Below are positions 10,038 through 50,313 of a stretch of DNA of 54,320 nt, one piece after another. Below the pieces are notes generated by a model. The model did not search any database and had not been told where the DNA came from. It saw only the letters and a list, made by a program, of their open reading frames with translations. The DNA comes from a virus: the UHGV virus genome UHGV-1522278; one strand, given 5' to 3'. The number at the start of each line of letters is the position of its first letter. Position 1 is the stretch's first letter. Made by a program: the position numbers and the translations under genes.

Positions 10038-10066
10038 TTGACTCGTGTTTTTACGGGGCGTATATT
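10038..10066 (+). promoter_or_regulatory. near-consensus sigma70 promoter (TTGACT - 17 nt - TATATT) flanked by an inverted repeat
   Basis: -35 at 10038-10043, -10 at 10061-10066; TTGACTCG (10038-10045) and CGAGTCAA (10069-10076) are exact reverse complements. Confidence 0.55.
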
Positions 10067-10108: not shown

Positions 10109-10146
10109 TGCTCTTTAATAATCTGGTCAGCCGCTGGAAGTGCGGC
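10109..10146 (+). promoter_or_regulatory. nut-like site: rrn-type boxA (TGCTCTTTAATAA) plus boxB-like hairpin
   Basis: boxA-like 10109-10121; hairpin GCCGC-tggaagt-GCGGC at 10130-10146, in the leader of the rightward early transcript. Confidence 0.45.
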
Positions 10147-17449: not shown

Positions 17450-17608
17450 AATTTACAAAATGGCGTCATTGCGTGATGTGGATCACATAATGGCGCTTTT
17501 TACCTTGTTCTGACGTATCCATTTTGTATACTTCAAACAAGCAAAATGCTCTTTAAAAATCCGGCAGCGCTGAAATGCGTAGAAATCACCTGAAAAGGAG
17601 AGAGCATT

Positions 17609-17785
17609 ATGCCTTTTGATAATTACCAATGGCATGACGACTATGAACGAGAAAGCGTCATGCGTGCAATGTGCAATGTATGCAGCACGAAGAAAGGAGA
17701 CTGCAACGAGTGCAACGAATGTTTAGATCATTGGCTAAAGGCCGGACACGCCGAAAGGCTGAACGAAACAGAGAATCAAAAATAA
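17609..17785 (+). CDS. small Cys-rich protein (58 aa)
   Basis: AGGAGA RBS; Cys cluster CNVCSTKKGDCNECNEC. Confidence 0.4.
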   Translation: MPFDNYQWHDDYERESVMRAMCNVCSTKKGDCNECNECLDHWLKAGHAERLNETENQK

Positions 17786-17799
17786 TCGGGGTGGTTTTT

Positions 17800-18405
17800 A
17801 TGCAAAACCCTAAAAAACCCATAAGACGCCGTTGCAAATGCTGCGGCGTTTTTTTTGAGCCTAAATATCACAATCAAACATGGTGCAGCGATGAATGTCT
17901 GGAAGAACTGAAATTTGATCAGCTATGTCGCGATCGTGAGAAGGCTATGAAGGCTATGGAACGGAAGAAACGCCGTGATAGCCAGCGTGAGGAACGCAAC
18001 CGGAAGCGGAAGCAGTTAAATCCGCGCAGCTACTGGATTAAACAGGCGCAAAACGTTTTTAACGCTTATATACGCGAGCGTGACGCGCTATTGCCGTGCA
18101 TATCATGCGGGACTTACTACGGTGAGCAATGCGGGTGGGATGCAGGCCATTACAGGACGGTAGCCGCCGCCGGACACCTTCGCTTTAACGATGATAATTG
18201 TCACAAGCAATGCAGGCACTGCAACCAGACACTAGACGGCAACATCGGAGGGTATCGCCCTGCGCTGATTCGAAAAATTGGCCTCGCCAGGGTAGTAGCT
18301 CTGGAGAACAACAACGAAACTCACAAATGGACGATAGAAGAATGCAAGGAAATCATAAAAGTCTATCAGGCTAAATTAGACGCCTTAAGGAGAAAGGCAG
18401 CATGA
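17800..18405 (+). CDS. ninG: NinG/Rap-like recombination protein
   Basis: start at the ATG at 17800; Cys-rich NinG-like sequence (CKCCGVFFEP...WCSDEC, CISCG, CHKQCRHCN). Confidence 0.8.
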   Translation: MQNPKKPIRRRCKCCGVFFEPKYHNQTWCSDECLEELKFDQLCRDREKAMKAMERKKRRDSQREERNRKRKQLNPRSYWIKQAQNVFNAYIRERDALLPCISCGTYYGEQCGWDAGHYRTVAAAGHLRFNDDNCHKQCRHCNQTLDGNIGGYRPALIRKIGLARVVALENNNETHKWTIEECKEIIKVYQAKLDALRRKAA

Positions 18406-18815: not shown

Positions 18816-19042
18816 TAAACATTGTTGTTAAATGTACTCAATCAAGCGTCGATTTTTTCACTGAAGGTAAAAAATATTCAGGTTTTATAAAGCATGGGTG
18901 CTTTGCTTTCATTCTACAAGACGATCTTGTATCTGATTTCGACGACGCCGACGCATGGCGATTAGTCCAGTATTTCCCGTCAAAAAATGAGTATTTTTTG
19001 CAGGGTCATTTTAAAACTAGGTTTAAGGTGGTAGAGAAATGA
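18806..19042 (+). CDS. hypothetical protein
   Basis: start at the ATG at 18806 with GGGGG RBS. Confidence 0.45.
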   Translation: MELINIVVKCTQSSVDFFTEGKKYSGFIKHGCFAFILQDDLVSDFDDADAWRLVQYFPSKNEYFLQGHFKTRFKVVEK

Positions 19043-19221
19043 AAAACGAAATTAAAGATCTGCAAATAGATATTCAGCGCGATGAGCATGATTTAGAAAC
19101 GGTCCGACAAATCCAGGCTTTTCATATGCGCGAATTGCTTGCATTGAAAGAGCTTGAGAGAAAGTTAGTTCAGTCTATTTCTGATCGTAAACACCTTATT
19201 GCTCGTTACGGGGGCAAGTAA
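19039..19221 (+). CDS. hypothetical protein (predicted coiled coil)
   Basis: 60-aa ORF. Confidence 0.45.
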   Translation: MKNEIKDLQIDIQRDEHDLETVRQIQAFHMRELLALKELERKLVQSISDRKHLIARYGGK

Positions 19222-19943
19222 TGAATCTGGAATCTATTCTCAAATTCCACTTCCCAAAATCACCGCGTTTATCAGATGAAAGCCGGGGCACGTCCCCGGA
19301 TGCACTTAATACTACGGATGCACTAACAGCAGCAGGCATGGCGCAATCGCGCGTAGAGCTTGGTTATAGCGCTTTTTTAGGGAAGATGGAACTATCACAA
19401 GCCGAAAAACATAAGGCCGTAGTTTTGCTTACAGAGCGTTTAAGGACTATGGCAAAAGATTATGAATACGTTATGGAACTGGACGAGGCCAAACGCAATG
19501 ATCTTATTATTCTTGTTGCCGTTTTCGCGTTTCGGGATTATTGCCAAAGCGCCGCGACGGAAAAAACTTGCCCGGAGTGCGGCGGATATAAATTTACGTT
19601 TGACGACTACGGAGAAAAACACCTTTGCAAAAAATGCAAGGGGCATGGGACAGTTCGCAATCATTGTAAACAATGCAAGGGCCGTGGCGAAGTACCGGAT
19701 AAAGCAGCCAGTGAAGCGGCGGAAATGCCAGTGTTCAAAACGTGCCAGCATTGCGGCGGGCGCGGGTACTCGCGTTTCCCTGTAGATCTTGTACGGCAGG
19801 CGGTTAATCAGCTTGTTTTTCCGGTAAGCCGATCAACATGGTGGAAAAAGTACCGGGCTTTCTATGAAGACGCCATTGCTGAATTGTTCAAAGAAGAGGC
19901 GCTGGCAGATAACGAAATTAAAAGAGTGACGCGGGGTGAATGA
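19221..19943 (+). CDS. DnaJ-type zinc-finger protein (4 x CxxCxGxG); possible Q-like late regulator
   Basis: 240 aa; CPECGGYK, CKKCKGHG, CKQCKGRG, CQHCGGRG repeats; sits where Q would be after ninG/rusA. Confidence 0.55.
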   Translation: MNLESILKFHFPKSPRLSDESRGTSPDALNTTDALTAAGMAQSRVELGYSAFLGKMELSQAEKHKAVVLLTERLRTMAKDYEYVMELDEAKRNDLIILVAVFAFRDYCQSAATEKTCPECGGYKFTFDDYGEKHLCKKCKGHGTVRNHCKQCKGRGEVPDKAASEAAEMPVFKTCQHCGGRGYSRFPVDLVRQAVNQLVFPVSRSTWWKKYRAFYEDAIAELFKEEALADNEIKRVTRGE

Positions 19944-20146
19944 TGGATAAGCTGGAAATAAACGATCAGTTTGCTGTTATCTTGTTCGAAGATAAAACGG
20001 GCGGTGCATGGTGTAAGAAAGTCACTGGTGCGGAAGCACGATTAATATTGGGTATGGCAAGCGCGTTAAATGATGGTGAATTGCCAGCCGTACCAGTTGA
20101 GCCAGTACATATTTACGGACGGAATAAAGATAATGAAAATAATTAA
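19940..20146 (+). CDS. hypothetical protein
   Basis: 68-aa ORF. Confidence 0.4.
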   Translation: MMDKLEINDQFAVILFEDKTGGAWCKKVTGAEARLILGMASALNDGELPAVPVEPVHIYGRNKDNENN

Positions 20147-20480
20147 TATTGGGTGGCTGTATTGCGAAAACTGCGACGACGATGGTATGGTCGTAAAAAC
20201 TGAAAAAGGTTGCGGCTTCATGCTGTATCAAGGTGATAAATTCGTTTGTCCTCGCTGCGGCGGCGGTGGTGAGATAGAAATCGTTAATGATATTGCTACA
20301 GCACATAAGCCATCTCGCATTGTCCTTGATGAAAAAATAAAAATTCATCCTGATTTATTACAGCAAATTATCGATCACGTATCGGCAGCCGCAATCTATA
20401 GCGATAACAATTATCAGCGTGAAATGAACGTCAAACGTGCTATTAAGCAGTATTTCGAGGTTGACGACAATGAAGCCTAA
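20133..20480 (+). CDS. zinc-ribbon protein
   Basis: start at the ATG at 20133; CENC...CPRCGGGG. Confidence 0.5.
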   Translation: MKIINIGWLYCENCDDDGMVVKTEKGCGFMLYQGDKFVCPRCGGGGEIEIVNDIATAHKPSRIVLDEKIKIHPDLLQQIIDHVSAAAIYSDNNYQREMNVKRAIKQYFEVDDNEA

Positions 20481-20742
20481 ATTAAAGGAACATCTATTTG
20501 CAAAACTGGTTAACGAATTAACGGAAACGGCACACCATTACGCTGGAACACAACAGCTACGCGGACGGTTGTCTTCAGTTGTCAACCGTTACATTGATGC
20601 AGGATGTCACCGCAAAGGTGAAATGACTATGGACAAGGCCATCAAGCGCCGTTCGGCTGAATGGTCAGTGAGTAACACCGGATTAACCGGATACATTGAA
20701 GGCTATAACGACTGTTTACAGGATCATAGCAATGAAAAGTAA
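20470..20742 (+). CDS. hypothetical protein
   Basis: start at the ATG at 20470 (GAGGT RBS). Confidence 0.45.
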   Translation: MKPKLKEHLFAKLVNELTETAHHYAGTQQLRGRLSSVVNRYIDAGCHRKGEMTMDKAIKRRSAEWSVSNTGLTGYIEGYNDCLQDHSNEK

Positions 20743-20950
20743 CCGCAAGCGCCTTGTAAGGGCATATGACAAAGCATTAAAGGCTTTTGATGATCTGCGA
20801 AGCAATAAGCGCCAGCGCCGCAAATGGGCGCGCATGCTTGTTCATGAATGGCATTATCCTGATGCTGCCTTGATAGAAGGTGCACCGCCATTTACACAGG
20901 AACAAGCCGACGAAGTAGCTAACGATAACGTTTATTATATGATGTGGTGA
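20732..20950 (+). CDS. hypothetical protein
   Basis: start at the ATG at 20732; basic N-terminus. Confidence 0.45.
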   Translation: MKSNRKRLVRAYDKALKAFDDLRSNKRQRRKWARMLVHEWHYPDAALIEGAPPFTQEQADEVANDNVYYMMW

Positions 20951-20954
20951 TAAT

Positions 20955-21320
20955 ATGCAAATAATCATTGATTATCTTTGTCATGCTGCAAATACGCTTT
21001 TTGGTTTTTATCAACAACCATTCCTCAAAGAATGGGACGAAATGCTGAATGACATCATTGATAAAGGGTTAATAATGGAGGTTGACGATCTCACAATCAA
21101 ATTTAATTACGATGGTAAAGAATATCTAATTTGGGTTGGTAATAGATGGTATTCATACGGTCATATTTATTCAATTGGTGGTAAGTTCATTAAAAGAAAC
21201 CAGGAATTTAGGCCACGCTTCCGCACAATGCGCCGCCTGCATGACCTGCATATGAAGATATTTGAAGATCAGGAAGAGCGCGAACTATTCAAGATCTACG
21301 GGGATAAATCATGGAATTAA
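20955..21320 (+). CDS. hypothetical protein
   Basis: 121-aa ORF. Confidence 0.5.
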   Translation: MQIIIDYLCHAANTLFGFYQQPFLKEWDEMLNDIIDKGLIMEVDDLTIKFNYDGKEYLIWVGNRWYSYGHIYSIGGKFIKRNQEFRPRFRTMRRLHDLHMKIFEDQEERELFKIYGDKSWN

Positions 21321-21541
21321 AAATCTGGCAGGCTATCGACGTAGTTGATAATGCGTTATCTATGTTCGCCACCGATGGGAAACGCGTAGCAATCACTACA
21401 TGGACGCGCAACTATGATGATATTTCTTTTCGTCGCAGAACGGCGGAGTGGTTTTTCTCTGAAGGCGGCTACACGATGAACATCGCACAGCTTGCCAGAA
21501 TGAAAGATGAAAAGCTGGTGGACAGCTACACAACTGCGTAA
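21311..21541 (+). CDS. hypothetical protein
   Basis: 76-aa ORF. Confidence 0.45.
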   Translation: MELKIWQAIDVVDNALSMFATDGKRVAITTWTRNYDDISFRRRTAEWFFSEGGYTMNIAQLARMKDEKLVDSYTTA

Positions 21542-21551
21542 CGGGGTAAAT

Positions 21552-21785
21552 ATGCGTATCTATGAACACAAGCGGGATAAAACCCGCTTTTTTGTTCGTG
21601 CTGGCGTGGCGTACCAGTATCACGAATGCGGTTACATTGAGGCGCTTGCTTACGATCTGGACTTCGAGCAAGAAAAGGAATGGTTCGATTTTAAAATTTA
21701 CCGTAAGCGCAAACCAACTCGCGACGAGCGCCACGCTATCCGTGAATTTTTAATCAGCATTGAACGTTGGGAGACAGAAGAGTGA
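21552..21785 (+). CDS. hypothetical protein
   Basis: start at the ATG at 21552. Confidence 0.45.
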   Translation: MRIYEHKRDKTRFFVRAGVAYQYHECGYIEALAYDLDFEQEKEWFDFKIYRKRKPTRDERHAIREFLISIERWETEE

Positions 21786-22009
21786 AAGTTAAATTCTTGC
21801 ACGATCACGGTTATCCGTCACTGAAACAGGTTGTTGGTAAGGTTGTTAACGTCGTCCATAGCGATGATGTCACTTGCATGATTAACGGTGCTGATTTAAT
21901 CGCCGCTGGCGCTGATGATCATTACATCAATCCTGCCTGGTCGTATACGTTCAGCCTGGGTGACTTCGTTGGCGACAAGGGGCGCGGGCTGGAAGTAGTC
22001 GAGGGTTAA
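21782..22009 (+). CDS. hypothetical protein
   Basis: GTG start at 21782 overlapping the upstream stop. Confidence 0.4.
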   Translation: MKVKFLHDHGYPSLKQVVGKVVNVVHSDDVTCMINGADLIAAGADDHYINPAWSYTFSLGDFVGDKGRGLEVVEG

Positions 22010-22013
22010 CATC

Positions 22014-22262
22014 ATGGACGTTTACGAAGATCTATACCTCCAGACAAACACCCGCACTTTTTATTTTCTGAAAAACGGCGTCGTATATCGCAGCGACGAC
22101 GGGGTAATAATGAAGGAGTGGTTATTTAAGCGTAAAGACCTACTCGACGATCTGGTTTTTGCCGGGATATTTCGTAAACGTCCGGCTAACCTGGAAGAAG
22201 AAATGTTGATTGAGGTATATCAAAATGAAAATCAGGGTAAGTTATTTCCGGGCGAAAGATAA
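22014..22262 (+). CDS. hypothetical protein
   Basis: 82-aa ORF. Confidence 0.45.
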   Translation: MDVYEDLYLQTNTRTFYFLKNGVVYRSDDGVIMKEWLFKRKDLLDDLVFAGIFRKRPANLEEEMLIEVYQNENQGKLFPGER

Positions 22263-22476
22263 GGCAACAGGAAAGCAGATGGCGATCCTGGTAAACGAGG
22301 CCAATTACATGTTTGTGCTTCAACCGTGGTGTATAGCTGACTATAACGATAATTATCGCCGCCACAGCGCGCGTGGTGCTGTAGGGATGAAAGGCTGGCA
22401 GCCGCGCGACATGGAAAGCTATTGTGAATGGAAGCTGATAGCAAAATACACGGTCGATTATAAAGGTGTGTTCTGA
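22225..22476 (+). CDS. hypothetical protein
   Basis: start at the ATG at 22225 (GAGGT RBS). Confidence 0.45.
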   Translation: MKIRVSYFRAKDKATGKQMAILVNEANYMFVLQPWCIADYNDNYRRHSARGAVGMKGWQPRDMESYCEWKLIAKYTVDYKGVF

Positions 22477-22531
22477 TGGTATTGCTTTCACGCAATAAAT
22501 ATAAAACGTGATCTACCTCGCAAAATATACG

Positions 22532-22563
22532 AAATGGCATTGTTTCGGCAGTGCCATTTTGTT
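22532..22563 (+). terminator. candidate rho-independent terminator
   Basis: AAATGGCA...TGCCATTT stem with a long loop, followed by TTTTGTT. Confidence 0.35.
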
Positions 22564-22586
22564 ATATATAAGCCACCGAAAGACGG

Positions 22587-22898
22587 ATGGGCAAAATCAT
22601 GAAAAGCAATAAATTCATAGCGTGCTGTTTTGTTGAAGTACCTGAAGGTGATGTCTTCTGCAATTACGAATTTAAAGACAGTTGGGGAAAATCTCATGTT
22701 GTAGTTGGCAAGCGCGGGGACTGGTTATACATAACAGACGATGACATGATTTTTACTGTAAGCCAGTTATTCAAAATTAAGTCAGAAAATAGTGAAGCAC
22801 CACTTTGCAGAATGTTTAACATGCATTATCACTCACTATTATTGTTAAAACAAGATGTTGTAAACAAAGCGCGTAGCTTACCTGGTGCCGAATTTTAA
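22587..22898 (+). CDS. hypothetical protein (AT-rich insert)
   Basis: 103-aa ORF in a visibly AT-richer stretch after a terminator-like hairpin. Confidence 0.5.
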   Translation: MGKIMKSNKFIACCFVEVPEGDVFCNYEFKDSWGKSHVVVGKRGDWLYITDDDMIFTVSQLFKIKSENSEAPLCRMFNMHYHSLLLLKQDVVNKARSLPGAEF

Positions 22899-22921
22899 TT
22901 TCTTACGAAGGAGAATGACAA

Positions 22922-23122
22922 ATGTCTAAATTTATCAGCGTTAAAGTTTTTCGTGGCACTTTTCCAGAAGATGAAAAAAATGGACAATTCGCCGGACAAC
23001 CTGGCGCATGTTTCCGTGTAGCAACTGACAACGAAGATTGCGTAAAATGCTACCACGTATCTGAACCTCCTTTTGACGTGAAATATCTTGATAATGCAGA
23101 TCACGTTAAATTTTTATCTTAG
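22922..23122 (+). CDS. hypothetical protein (AT-rich insert)
   Basis: 66-aa ORF with AAGGAG RBS. Confidence 0.5.
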   Translation: MSKFISVKVFRGTFPEDEKNGQFAGQPGACFRVATDNEDCVKCYHVSEPPFDVKYLDNADHVKFLS

Positions 23123-23221
23123 TATCATTGGAACTTAATCCATTCCCTGGTGATGAAGTGGAATTGATTGGCGCTGAACTGGTCGCTGAATACAAAATGA
23201 CTGAAGGTGTAACAGGGGGAA

Positions 23222-23476
23222 TTGACATTGAGCGCATCAAGTAAGCTATACAAGATCAGGTGTAAAGGCGAATATCCTGGCTTTACGACTGGTTGCGAAT
23301 ACCTGGGCCATATTGGGTACGGCCCTTTCGGCGAATTAGGGATGAATACGCTGGACGACGATGGCGACAACAGGACGCTTGATCTTGATTCTGATGATTT
23401 CGAATACATCCCGCCAGTAACTTACCGCGTGGTTGATGAGTTCCTGGCTGAACATGAAGACGATGAGGATGATTAA
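23222..23476 (+). CDS. small highly acidic protein
   Basis: 84 aa, non-ATG start inferred; Asp/Glu-rich C-terminal half ending EDDEDD. Confidence 0.4.
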   Translation: MTLSASSKLYKIRCKGEYPGFTTGCEYLGHIGYGPFGELGMNTLDDDGDNRTLDLDSDDFEYIPPVTYRVVDEFLAEHEDDEDD

Positions 23477-23608
23477 ATGGAAGATTGGTATAAAAATTTG
23501 CTAATTATGTTTCTTTCTGAAAATTGGGCGCTATTTGAGCGTTTTTGCGAGGAACATGGAGAAGACCCTAACGATATTTATCACGATCTTGGGGGTGAAG
23601 ATGATTGA
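23477..23608 (+). CDS. small ORF (43 aa)
   Basis: ATG directly after the upstream stop. Confidence 0.3.
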   Translation: MEDWYKNLLIMFLSENWALFERFCEEHGEDPNDIYHDLGGEDD

Positions 23609-23801
23609 ATGCCTTATTATTGCGGTTATTATCATTTACCTGGCTGGCGTCATTTTAATGGGCGCTTTTCAGAAAGCTGTTGATAGTGACGGCATTATTT
23701 GGTTCGAGCTAGTCTTCTGGCCTTTCATTACGATATACGCATTCAGTGACGCTATGCGTATTAACATCATGCGAGCCATTAAGGAGCGCAAAAATGATTG
23801 A
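23601..23801 (+). CDS. small membrane protein
   Basis: start at the ATG at 23601 (GGGGGTGAAG RBS); two hydrophobic segments. Confidence 0.5.
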   Translation: MIECLIIAVIIIYLAGVILMGAFQKAVDSDGIIWFELVFWPFITIYAFSDAMRINIMRAIKERKND

Positions 23802-23976
23802 AGATGGCGTGTACGCGGCAACAGTAGTTGAAAGGCTGTTTTACCGCGTAGAAGGCGATGATATTCGTATCCGCGTTGGCGGTGGCGAGTGGGTAGCGCC
23901 AATCATTAAGACGACGCGAGAAACAATTAAAATATTTCTTGATGCTGGCGAACTGGTGAAGGTTGGCGACCTATGA
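23794..23976 (+). CDS. hypothetical protein
   Basis: start at the ATG at 23794 (AGGAG RBS). Confidence 0.45.
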   Translation: MIEDGVYAATVVERLFYRVEGDDIRIRVGGGEWVAPIIKTTRETIKIFLDAGELVKVGDL

Positions 23977-24149
23977 ATGAGATCGAAGATGGCATCTATT
24001 TGCATAAGGTATTCAACATCGCTTATTTGGTTAGAGGTGAAGCGGTGATGATAAGACCTGATGACGTTCCGTATTGGGAATTAAGCGACATGGATCGGTG
24101 GCACATGCAAATGCTACTTGATAATGGACTGATATACAGAAAGCGGTAA
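23973..24149 (+). CDS. small ORF (58 aa)
   Basis: ATGA overlap with the upstream gene. Confidence 0.35.
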   Translation: MNEIEDGIYLHKVFNIAYLVRGEAVMIRPDDVPYWELSDMDRWHMQMLLDNGLIYRKR

Positions 24150-24157
24150 AGCCGTAT

Positions 24158-24186
24158 TTGTGGGTCGAAAACAAACAGATTAAAAT
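24158..24186 (+). promoter_or_regulatory. candidate late promoter (TTGTGG - 17 nt - TAAAAT) upstream of the lysis cassette
   Basis: -35-like at 24158-24163, -10-like at 24181-24186; followed within about 30 nt by a strong terminator hairpin. Confidence 0.35.
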
Positions 24187-24213
24187 ATTACCTAACAATG
24201 CGAAAGTGTAACT

Positions 24214-24240
24214 ACCCGGCCCCGTGCCGGGTTTTTGCTT
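24214..24240 (+). terminator. rho-independent terminator just upstream of the holin gene (tR'-like)
   Basis: ACCCGGC-cccgt-GCCGGGT followed by TTTTTGCTTT. Confidence 0.55.
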
Positions 24241-24256
24241 TGTTGGAGGTAAATCT

Positions 24257-24457
24257 ATGTTCGACAGAATACGGGAGGCGTGTGCGTATGTGACCGGGGC
24301 CGTAACTGCTTTTTTCGGCGCGATAACCATCAATGACATTGCCGTCTTTGTGGGTATCTTATCAACCATTGGCACATTTGCCGTTAATTATTACTTCAAA
24401 TCACAGGAGAACAAGCGAGCGCAAGAGGAACACGACGCGCGAATGGGGAATAAGTAA
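24257..24457 (+). CDS. holin (class II / pinholin-like)
   Basis: 66 aa from the ATG at 24257 (GGAGG RBS); two TM segments and a charged C-terminus; precedes a SAR endolysin. Confidence 0.75.
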
Positions 24458-24458
24458 C

Positions 24459-24950
24459 ATGATTAGCCAATCGCTGAAAAACAAGATTGTTGCGGCGGCG
24501 GCTGGTGGGGCGATCGCTATTGCGGCGGTGATGATTAAGCCATTAGAGGGAGTTGATTACAATCCTTATCGTGATGTTGTTGGTGTATGGACTGTTTGCC
24601 ACGGTCATACGGGAAAAGACATCATGCTTGGCAAGACTTACACGCAATCAGAATGCGATGCTTTGTTAAATAAAGATCTACACAAGACCGCAAAAGCGAT
24701 CGATCCATATATTAAAGTCGAAATATCAGATTTTACCCGCGCAGCACTTTATTCATTCGCCTATAACGTAGGCGCTACCAATTTCAAAACATCAACCTTA
24801 TTGAAGCTACTCAATGACGGCAAGAAATCAGAAGCGTGCGCACAGCTTAAACGCTGGGTATACGCTGGCGGTAAGAAGTGGCAAGGCCTGGTTAACCGCC
24901 GCGAGGTTGAATATGCCGTTTGCGAATGGGGTGAAACATGGACAAGGTGA
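24459..24950 (+). CDS. SAR endolysin (T4-type lysozyme fold, phage 21 R-like)
   Basis: 163 aa; N-terminal signal-anchor-release segment [17 protein letters not shown]; catalytic E-x8-D-x5-T. Confidence 0.9.
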
Positions 24951-25408
24951 AGACGTTAATCATCGCCGTTGTTGTTTGTATTGTTGTTGGCCTTGTTGCC
25001 GCGCTCAGTCATTGCCAGTCAGTGATAAACACAATGCAAAGCGAGCTAACTACTACGCAGGGCGCACTAAAAACAGCAAGTAACACTATTCAGCAGATGA
25101 AGGAGCGAAACGCCGAACTGTCAAAACTTGATAAGAGGTATCACGATGAGATTAAAGCTATCAGATCTGACATTGCCGATCTGCGCACTGGCATTGATAA
25201 CGGTACTATCCGGTTGCGCGTCAACGCAATACCCGTGCGAGTGTCCGACTCCACCGGAACCGCCAGCCGCATTGATGGAGCCACCTGTAGACTCACTCCC
25301 GACGCTGAATCAGCTTATCTATCCCTCAGAGAACAACTAAAAACGAAAGACGCTCAGATCACTGGGTTACAGGACTACATCAAAACGCAGTGCTTACGCA
25401 AAGAATAA
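24938..25408 (+). CDS. Rz-like i-spanin
   Basis: 156 aa; N-terminal TM segment then coiled-coil periplasmic region; overlaps endolysin end. Confidence 0.8.
25146..25340 (+). CDS. Rz1-like o-spanin lipoprotein (embedded in the +1 frame of Rz)
   Basis: start at the ATG at 25146 (AAGAGG RBS); lipobox LSGC; Pro-rich mature part. Confidence 0.7.
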   Translation: MRLKLSDLTLPICALALITVLSGCASTQYPCECPTPPEPPAALMEPPVDSLPTLNQLIYPSENN

Positions 25409-25687
25409 CAGCGCGTGGACGTGTCGCCGTTTCCGCCAGCCAGCCATAACCGGGCCAATCCTTCCCGCGAGCGACGGCGGAAAAGTCAAAAACACGTAAT
25501 ACCTGGTCAACAGCCTCATTAACAGGTCCGGCGCTACCTGGGTAGAAGAAAGCGCCATTCTCCAGTTTTATAAAATTCTGAAAACGGTACTCATGCAGCG
25601 CCGTTTTTAGTGTTTTATAGCTGTTTTCACTCCCTGCGGTGTCCGGTTTTGCGGGGGTTATATTTTTCAGGATAGAGGAATATTCTG

Positions 25688-26272
25688 ATGGCTAAGGCTA
25701 AAGGCATCAAGTTGCCTCAATTCAAAGTTCCGCTCTTTGAGCATACAACTGTTTTCTTCTGCCCGACCCGCGAGATGTTCTATGAGTTTTGCGAAAAGGC
25801 AGGGATCCCAATCGAACCTGATTTCGAACTGGCAGGGGGATTAACACTTACTTGCACTGGAGAGAAAGGCGGTAACTTCTACGTGATCGCAGTATTCGAC
25901 AATGAGTTAGGAACGCTGGTACACGAATGCGCCCACACCACATTTCACGTATTAAGTGATGTAGGTGTCGTGGCGACAACTGATCCAACTCATCCGGCAA
26001 ACGAGACTTACGCTTACATGGTAGGCCGCATCTTTGATGCATTCTTCCCGATCCTGGCTGAATCAAACGAAGCACAGGTGGCAGCTATGCAGGCCGCTGA
26101 AGTCGTAGAGAAGGCATTAGACCAGGCAGAAAAGGCGACTGATGCAGCAGAACAGGCAGTTGAACAGGCAGAGGAGCCGAAAGAAGAGAAAAAACCAGCG
26201 AAGAAAGGCAAACGTAAGCCTAAAGCAAAAGAAGCGCTTGTACCGCGTGTAATGAGCTTTAAACGGGGGTGA
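25688..26272 (+). CDS. hypothetical protein with HExxH motif and Lys-rich C-terminal tail
   Basis: 194 aa; VHECAHTTFH; C-terminus KEEKKPAKKGKRKPKAKE. Confidence 0.6.
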   Translation: MAKAKGIKLPQFKVPLFEHTTVFFCPTREMFYEFCEKAGIPIEPDFELAGGLTLTCTGEKGGNFYVIAVFDNELGTLVHECAHTTFHVLSDVGVVATTDPTHPANETYAYMVGRIFDAFFPILAESNEAQVAAMQAAEVVEKALDQAEKATDAAEQAVEQAEEPKEEKKPAKKGKRKPKAKEALVPRVMSFKRG

Positions 26273-26347
26273 TTATGGTTACTTTTCTGTTGGGTTTATT
26301 TATCGGAATGGCTGCCGCTGTAATATTACTGGTTGGTGAATAATGTT

Positions 26348-40351: not shown

Positions 40352-40381
40352 AACCCCGGTACAATGCCGGGGTTATCTTTT
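40352..40381. terminator. bidirectional rho-independent terminator
   Basis: AACCCCGG-tacaatg-CCGGGGTT with T/A-rich flanks on both strands. Confidence 0.55.
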
Positions 40382-41830: not shown

Positions 41831-41856
41831 AACCCCGCTTCTCGCGGGGTTTTCTT
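41831..41856. terminator. bidirectional rho-independent terminator (near-identical copy at 50286-50313)
   Basis: AACCCCGC-ttctc-GCGGGGTT followed by TTTCTT. Confidence 0.6.
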
Positions 41857-50285: not shown

Positions 50286-50313
50286 AACCCCGCTTCGCGC
50301 GGGGTTTTCTTTT
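50286..50313. terminator. bidirectional rho-independent terminator between J and the lipoprotein gene
   Basis: AACCCCGC-ttcgc-GCGGGGTT followed by TTTCTTTT. Confidence 0.6.

Follow-up and report, generated by a model that had tools for sequence, protein, structure and literature searches.

The stretch of DNA analyzed here (UHGV virus genome UHGV-1522278, 54,320 nucleotides (nt) and hereafter called the window) belongs to a temperate coliphage of the mEpimmI group whose nearest relatives are mEp010 and mEp021. Directly upstream of its holin gene, positions 24168-24237 probably form a Q-dependent late regulatory unit built like the PR'-qut-tR' unit of phage lambda, with a -10 hexamer, a predicted pause element and a strong intrinsic terminator in succession and a Q-lambda homologue encoded upstream (Table 1). 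A sequence-only reading had already proposed a PR'/tR'-like unit here, pointing to the hexamers TTGTGG and TAAAAT separated by 17 nt and to a hairpin, a T-run and the holin ribosome-binding site (RBS), and all of these are present where it placed them. What supports its interpretation is the Q homologue, the repeat that forms the pause element and the conservation of the unit, not the match of the hexamer pair.

A strong terminator and a predicted pause element precede the holin gene

The hairpin upstream of the holin gene ranks first in a terminator scan of the window and folds at -13 kcal/mol. All-GC 6-base-pair (bp) stems followed by a T-run occur nine times in the window compared with 0.06 times per dinucleotide shuffle (~150-fold enrichment), which puts the terminator far above chance. 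Orthologous hairpins with an identical stem occupy the same pre-holin position in mEp021 (TERM_5, score 100) and mEp010 (T9), where they are annotated as terminators, and the orthologues in other phages of the group carry this annotation as well. In mEp021 coordinates, the -10 lies at 24262-24267, the pause element at 24275-24280 and TERM_5 at 24296-24312. In PMC11893012, the legend of Fig. 7 lists t5 of mEp021 among the experimentally demonstrated terminators; given how TERM_1 to TERM_5 succeed one another in the rightward operon, we infer that t5 is GenBank TERM_5. For TERM_5/t5 and for T9 the records mark the terminator alone, with no promoter, pause element or Q site described there or in the accessible text; the supplements of PMC11893012 hold no content on terminators or promoters. 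As the T-run and the holin RBS are separated by 9 nt, there is no room for a promoter 3' of the terminator.

The most diagnostic element of the unit, overlooked in the earlier reading, is a second -10-like hexamer, AACAAT, downstream of TAAAAT. In lambda, sigma-70 re-binds such a second hexamer and gives rise to the +16 pause where Q loads (PMC5001585, PMC4005639, PMC9388147), and in both lambda and phage 82 the position of the pause is set by a G/C-rich triplet that follows the -10-like element and leads into an AT-rich stretch (PMC5001585). In the window, AACAAT is likewise followed by GCG and an AT-rich segment. By analogy with P22, transcription would start at A24194 (or 24193) and pause near +16/+17 (24209/24210); the hairpin would then occupy +21 to +39, giving a terminated RNA of ~43-46 nt. 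In structures of Q-lambda, the RNA 5' end threads through the torus of Q while the transcript lengthens from 11 to ~16 nt (PMC9388147), a stage that precedes synthesis of any part of the window unit's hairpin.

The unit shares its layout with those of other Q-lambda-family phages

We read the PR' regions directly in nine other phages with Q-lambda-family proteins. All nine have a -10-like hexamer 5-7 nt past the -10, which is AACGAT in five of them; AACGAT, AACAGT or AACACT stands at this distance in seven. AACAAT of the window has the same offset as, and is near-identical to, AACGAT of lambda, P22, HK225 and SfV and AACAGT of SEN22. Written as -35, spacer length and -10, then the gap, then the -10-like element, lambda and P22 read TTGACT-17-TAAATT, TGACTC, AACGAT-GG; HK225, TTTACT-16-TAATTT, TATCCC, AACGAT-GGG; and SEN22, TTTACA-17-TAATAT, CATTTCT, AACAGT. 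From the -10 onward, Klebsiella ST16-OXA48phi5.1 reads TAATTT, GTTCT, AACGAT-GGG; SfV, TAAGAT, TTTTCC, AACGAT-GGG; and phiEt88, TATACT, TCTCT, AACACT, while Pantoea AH07 and Vibrio Pm34 have CATAGT-GGG as their -10-like element. The corresponding window string is TTGTGG-17-TAAAAT, ATTACCT, AACAAT-GCG. At sequence level this is exactly the layout of the nine other units: a -10, 5-7 nt, a -10-like element usually followed by GGG, and a terminator.

One of the closest known systems, lambda PR'-qut-tR' with its 6S RNA leader, has a promoter, a pause element at +1 to +6, a G/C-rich triplet, a terminator and the holin-endolysin-spanin genes in the order proposed for the window. It differs in its strong -35, TTGACT, which recurs next to the pause element (the window unit has neither copy), and in a spacer containing the Q-binding element (QBE) that is unrelated in sequence to the window spacer. 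Lambda PR' also lies 43 nt past the Q stop codon, compared with 4.2 kilobases (kb) in the window, and its sole visible leader hairpin with a T-run (CCCGAAAC...GTTTCGGGATTTTTT) lies ~140-190 nt past the start, whereas the window hairpin begins at ~+21. P22 Plate/t late (gene 23 protein; BK000583) has its annotated +1 at the first A of AACGAT and its terminator at +31 to +59. It stands directly 3' of gene 23 with a lambda-like promoter and spacer, and the holin follows ~300 nt past the terminator, in contrast to the short distance to the RBS in the window.

Two further units resemble that of the window in particular details. SEN22 encodes the Q closest to ours from outside the mEpimmI group (40% identity, with the same four-CxxC arm), and its unit shares the 7-nt offset and the CTAACA context. 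In HK225, the terminator lies 88 nt after Q, at ~+29, and the sequence beyond it, TTTTGCGTTTCTGGAGG, resembles TTTTTGCTTTGTTGGAGG of the window. The units of SEN22, HK225, ST16-OXA48phi5.1, SfV and phiEt88 all differ from ours in lying directly 3' of their own Q and in having a better -35, and the CCCGAA-type motifs that their spacers share are not conserved in the window unit. A short leader is plausible because the terminators of P22 and HK225 provide annotated precedent. Overall, the window unit is the most compact of those compared, with no difference in kind.

The unit is conserved between exchangeable flanks

The pre-holin region was collected from 48 loci (IMG/VR contigs, phage records and prophages), giving 36 distinct sequences. 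Over the unit region, the window is 90-94% identical to the Mexican Escherichia coli phages mEp010, 013, 021, 044, 515 and 554 and to MagusPhagus, and it also matches 35 E. coli prophages. The hexamers TAAAAT and AACAAT (24181-86 and 24194-99) and the hairpin stem (24215-20 and 24226-31) each vary at 0 of 12 positions, compared with 35 of 66 (53%) third codon positions of the holin gene (within 24257-24454; Fisher p=8e-7 for hexamers and stem together). The stem also differs from the hairpin loop (24221-24225), in which four of five positions vary (p=0.002). Variability amounts to 18 of 22 positions in the left flank (24147-24168), 11 of 45 in the core (24169-24213) and 3 of 24 between T-run and RBS (24233-24256). 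The conserved block is sharply bounded, extending from 24169 to the RBS.

Mosaic junctions were found at both edges. On the left, at 24168, the flank occurs in two unrelated versions, GCCGTATTTGTRG... and CCATAATCGCGCAT... (the latter in 12 of the 36 sequences), and in prophages such as 09-00049 the similarity is limited to what lies rightward of this position. On the right, at 24246-24256, recombination has joined the unit and its left flank to a different holin in E21845/O/A and two IMG/VR contigs; at L004, L050 and L051, where the holin is just 57% identical, the unit is nearly unchanged. Retention of the unit across exchanges on both sides indicates a functional module of about 75 bp, which appears to behave as a conserved linker between exchangeable modules.

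The unit motif has one copy per genome and is confined in IMG/VR to this phage group, which was also all that a scan of IMG/VR for divergent copies (for covariation in the stem) recovered. A metagenome scan returned 120 stretches with two real units, both having the same stem, and a scan of species-representative genomes with the holin found only distant Xenorhabdus and Morganella holins without the unit. With no divergent copies in these searches, compensatory changes in the stem were not available.

A Q-lambda homologue with a doubled zinc-ribbon arm

The protein encoded by the Q gene matches the Q-lambda structure PDB 7UBM (E=8e-40, residues 1-114 and 147-238) and is 35% identical to lambda Q over its full length. 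Residues 115-185 contain four CxxC motifs (CPECGG, CKKCKGHG, CKQCKGRG and CQHCGGRG), and an insertion of ~33 amino acids (aa) doubles the zinc-ribbon arm relative to Q-lambda, as it does in the Q of Salmonella phage SEN22. Such an arm suggests a different reach on DNA or an altered reading of the binding site. Comparison of Q protein variants with the two upstream variants (A and B) revealed no clear correlation.

The lambda QBE is a 13-bp asymmetric site. According to the legend of Fig. 1 in PMC9388147, it is located between the -35 and the -10. The conserved block of the window begins, at the left-hand mosaic junction, 12-13 bp 5' of the -10, and by analogy of position its A-rich segment at 24168-24180 may be a Q site. 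This segment is unlike the known QBEs in sequence.

Downstream of the unit, four more strong terminators on the same strand lie between late genes, and transcription of these genes would therefore need processive antitermination. No strong promoters were found between these four terminators, and a single upstream promoter combined with a processive antiterminator is the economical reading of the late region.

Proposed mechanism and meaning

In the model we favor, sigma-70 RNA polymerase would start at ~A24194 from the -10 TAAAAT, aided by a weak and variable -35, and sigma region 2 would then re-bind AACAAT (+1 to +6) to produce a scrunched pause at ~+16. Without Q, the polymerase would reach the GC-rich hairpin (+21 to +39) with its U-run and release an RNA of ~43-46 nt, leaving the holin, endolysin and spanin genes and 29 kb of packaging and structural genes silent; the same hairpin would also end the early rightward operon for unmodified polymerase. 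The Q-lambda-type protein, made from that operon 4.2 kb upstream, would bind the conserved 12-13 bp just 5' of the -10 and load onto the paused polymerase, which would then resist this terminator and at least four strong terminators further into the late region.

A bolder version, plausible though perhaps not quite the likelier outcome, is that mEpimmI phages carry a detached and remodelled Q-lambda switch. Q would act in trans over 2-6 kb, with a hypervariable array of tiny open reading frames (ORFs) in between, and would read a new A-rich site (AAACAAAYRGAT) through its doubled zinc-ribbon arm. The promoter would have almost no -35, and the hairpin, ~4 nt past the expected pause, would double as tR' and as the terminator that closes the early operon. 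If this is true, the unit is a natural minimal Q-lambda cassette of ~70 bp and provides, with its Q, a second, divergent Q-lambda/QBE pair for structural comparison. Already under the favored model, a Q-lambda cassette would be able to function, or at any rate be retained, with kilobases of accessory ORFs between it and Q, and the unit together with the doubled-arm Q would offer a compact and divergent example on which to test site recognition by Q-lambda proteins.

The kind of switch is already known, and for general biology the arrangement is the expected one, not a surprise. For the phages concerned, our reading would locate the late-gene switch in a recently described, gut-prevalent coliphage group in which only early (N-like) antitermination has been studied experimentally and in which the records mark just a terminator at this place. 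It also provides the exact positions to target in mutagenesis and reporter experiments with mEp021 and mEp010.

Evidence against a late switch and alternative explanations

Several observations weigh against a Q-dependent unit. The hexamer pair that the sequence-only reading had offered as evidence for a promoter does not serve as such: matches of 8/12 number 213 in the window compared with 251 ± 18 in shuffles, which places the pair at chance level, and a standard promoter scan of the window did not list TTGTGG-17-TAAAAT. In 12 of 36 distinct relatives (variant B), TTGTGG is replaced by TCGCGC, which places the proposed -35 outside the conserved unit. Sigma region 4 in lambda uses a -35-like TTGACT beside the pause element; no such sequence is present at 24188-24191, which is the most variable part of the core. 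The candidate Q block resembles neither the lambda/P22 spacer (TTGAATAAA.TTGGG) nor the HK225-type CCCGAA motif. The -10 lies 4.2 kb past the Q stop codon in the window, with a spacing of 1.9 kb in mEp021 and of >6 kb in some relatives, although this non-adjacency is a feature of genome layout, not of mechanism. Conservation has limited power among relatives that are 83-100% identical at the unit, and a function at the RNA level, or service of the unit as a recombination linker, could also account for it. Finally, early transcription modified by the N-like Gp17 also passes terminators in mEp021, as reported in PMC11893012.

This last point is central to the view that the hairpin is a plain end of the early operon (t5) with no promoter, that polymerase from the early promoter, made termination-resistant by Gp17 at nutR1/nutR2, reaches the late genes and that the hexamers are incidental. 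Consistent with it, an N-like antiterminator acts with three nut sites in mEp021, whose demonstrated terminators include t5 (PMC11893012), the window has boxA-like TGCTCTTTA at 10109 and 17547, all genes from ~10.6 kb to the hairpin lie on one strand, and the -35 is weak, not conserved and part of a pair that matches at chance level. We nevertheless regard it as unlikely: the invariance of TAAAAT, AACAAT and the preceding 13 bp amid varying flank and synonymous sites goes unexplained, as does the likeness to the PR' layout of nine Q-lambda-family phages, and a conserved Q gene is left without a target, as no other site in the window has such an architecture beside a terminator. That the Q-responsive promoter is instead elsewhere, directly after Q or 5' of the terminase genes, with the unit unrelated to Q, is very improbable. 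The textbook PR' does follow Q directly (PMC9388147), but the ORF after Q begins at the Q stop codon (an ATGA overlap, as in mEp021), leaving neither intergenic space nor a motif; with no pair of -10 and -10-like hexamers from Q up to 24181, we rejected a late promoter directly after Q. The pattern of a -10, 6-7 nt and AACRRT does recur at 25571 and 27005. The window holds six such matches, however, and shuffles hold 3.1 ± 1.7, so most of the matches are chance. The 25571 candidate has no usable -35 and sits inside an AT-rich palindrome, and we judged it chance or unrelated; that at 27005 overlaps the start codon of a small hydrophobic ORF (start 27022), where AACGAT mimics a pause element by chance.

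It is also quite improbable that the promoter is real but the terminator a Q-independent leaky attenuator, or that the segment acts mainly at the RNA level (mRNA stability, tuning of holin translation or a regulatory short RNA). In such a leader, 5' AACAA and GCGAAA would pair with UUUUGC and UUGUU flanking the hairpin. The 52-nt leader indeed folds at -20.7 kcal/mol (z=-4.1) with its 5' end paired just before the RBS, the paired segments are all invariant except for a change of C24238 to T that keeps a G-U pair, and the leaders of lambda, P22 and HK225 also hold a complement of their 5' AACGA. However, segments that never vary offer no compensatory change in the extra helices, a short ACAAT/ATTGT hairpin is broken in 16 of the 36 sequences (C or G at 24206), and no Rfam family matched (Rfam 15 covariance models, 19000-27500, E up to 1). 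Leakiness is not suggested by a 7-bp GC-rich stem with T5 that scores 100 in the mEp021 annotation, and an RNA-level role makes no use of the Q gene. Such a role could coexist with the Q-dependent switch.

Genome context and other features

The gene map of the window is that of the mEpimmI group, described in 2025 as Nus-dependent, non-lambdoid temperate siphoviruses with an N-lambda-like Gp17 and Q-lambda-like proteins (PMC11893012). From ~10.6 kb up to the hairpin, every gene lies on the same strand. The interval between Q and the unit ranges from 1.9 to >6 kb in relatives and holds differing sets of ORFs; the corresponding array of the window consists of hypervariable accessory genes under early control. 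Coordinates of all features are collected in Table 1.

Table 1 Features of the regulatory unit and its surroundings in the window
Feature	Position	Strand	Evidence or remark
-35-like TTGTGG	24158-24163	+	sequence; 3/6 versus TTGACA, weak, outside conserved core
A-rich spacer block AAAACAAACAGAT, candidate Q-binding element	24168..24180	+	24169-24175 (AAACAAA) and 24178-24180 (GAT) invariant, n=36
-10 TAAAAT	24181-24186	+	5/6; invariant in 36 distinct relatives
-10-like AACAAT, predicted sigma-dependent pause element	24194-24199	+	7 nt (ATTACCT) after TAAAAT; invariant in relatives
GCG, then AT-rich initial transcribed segment	24200-24213	+	24200-24205 invariant
Intrinsic terminator, tR'-like	hairpin 24214-24232, T5 24233-24237	+	sequence, scan, fold; stem ACCCGGC/GCCGGGT, loop CCCGT (5 nt)
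Holin RBS GGAGG	24246-24250	+	sequence; kept in relatives
Gap of 107 nt housing the unit	between 24149 and holin ATG 24257		
Q gene, 240 aa, Q-lambda family	19221..19943	+	Pfam PF03589 E=4.5e-30, 104 bits versus cutoff 26.7
Array of ~25 tiny ORFs	19943-24149	same strand	40-120 aa; no Pfam match among those tested
Early genes, rightward	NinG at 17671; RusA at 18402	+	gene map/Pfam
Holin, 66 aa, HP1 family, first late gene	24257..24457	+	Pfam PF16080 E=1.8e-14
Endolysin, lysozyme family	24459..24950	+	Pfam PF00959 E=2.7e-44; N-terminal hydrophobic segment
Rz-type spanin	24938..25408	+	Pfam PF03245 E=4e-26
Embedded lipoprotein ORF, candidate Rz1	25128-25340		ORF list
Terminase and structural genes	3' of lysis genes		
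Strong all-GC-stem terminators between late genes	34228-34246, 36577-36592, 41833-41849, 50288-50304	+	

In the early region, a good promoter (TTGACT-17-TATATT) is present at 10038. The boxA-like sequence TGCTCTTTA occurs in the window only at 10109-10117 and 17547-17555, each time followed by a small hairpin with an A-rich loop (GCCGC-UGGAAGU-GCGGC and GCGC-UGAAAU-GCGU), and these sites are probably the nutL and nutR2 equivalents of mEp021. Within the leader of the unit, ACAAT pairs with ATTGT at +12 to +16 in 20 of the 36 mEpimmI sequences (window 24195-24209). As a nut site (ACAAT-GCGAA-ATTGT, with a GNRA-like loop in the T-variant leader) this hairpin was rejected on account of an AU-only stem, disruption in 16 of 36 relatives and no boxA nearby. 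The transcripts of lambda, P22 and HK225 open with AACGA, whose perfect complement, TCGTT, is present at +19 to +23 (L067 788-810, L115 2202-2224 and L116 ~2376-2398, respectively); we know of no described role for these complements.

The gap after the spanin gene (25409-25690) is highly conserved; it includes the AT-rich element TTTTATAAAATTCTGAAAACGGTACTCATGCAGCGCCGTTTTTAG, in which AAAACGG and CCGTTTT form an inverted repeat, and has mosaic junctions at ~25560 and ~25618. The window also has a conserved ORF on the minus strand at 25394-25558, and in mEp021 the equivalent interval has an annotated terminator, TERM_6. Very hydrophobic peptides of 28-67 aa are encoded by a series of short ORFs (26333-27108) that separates the lysis cassette from the small terminase gene. 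Among the late-region terminators, the hairpin at 41833 is almost a copy of that at 50288 (AACCCCGCTTC[T/G]CGCGGGGTT), and the latter, together with another at 40354-40372 (- strand), looks bidirectional.

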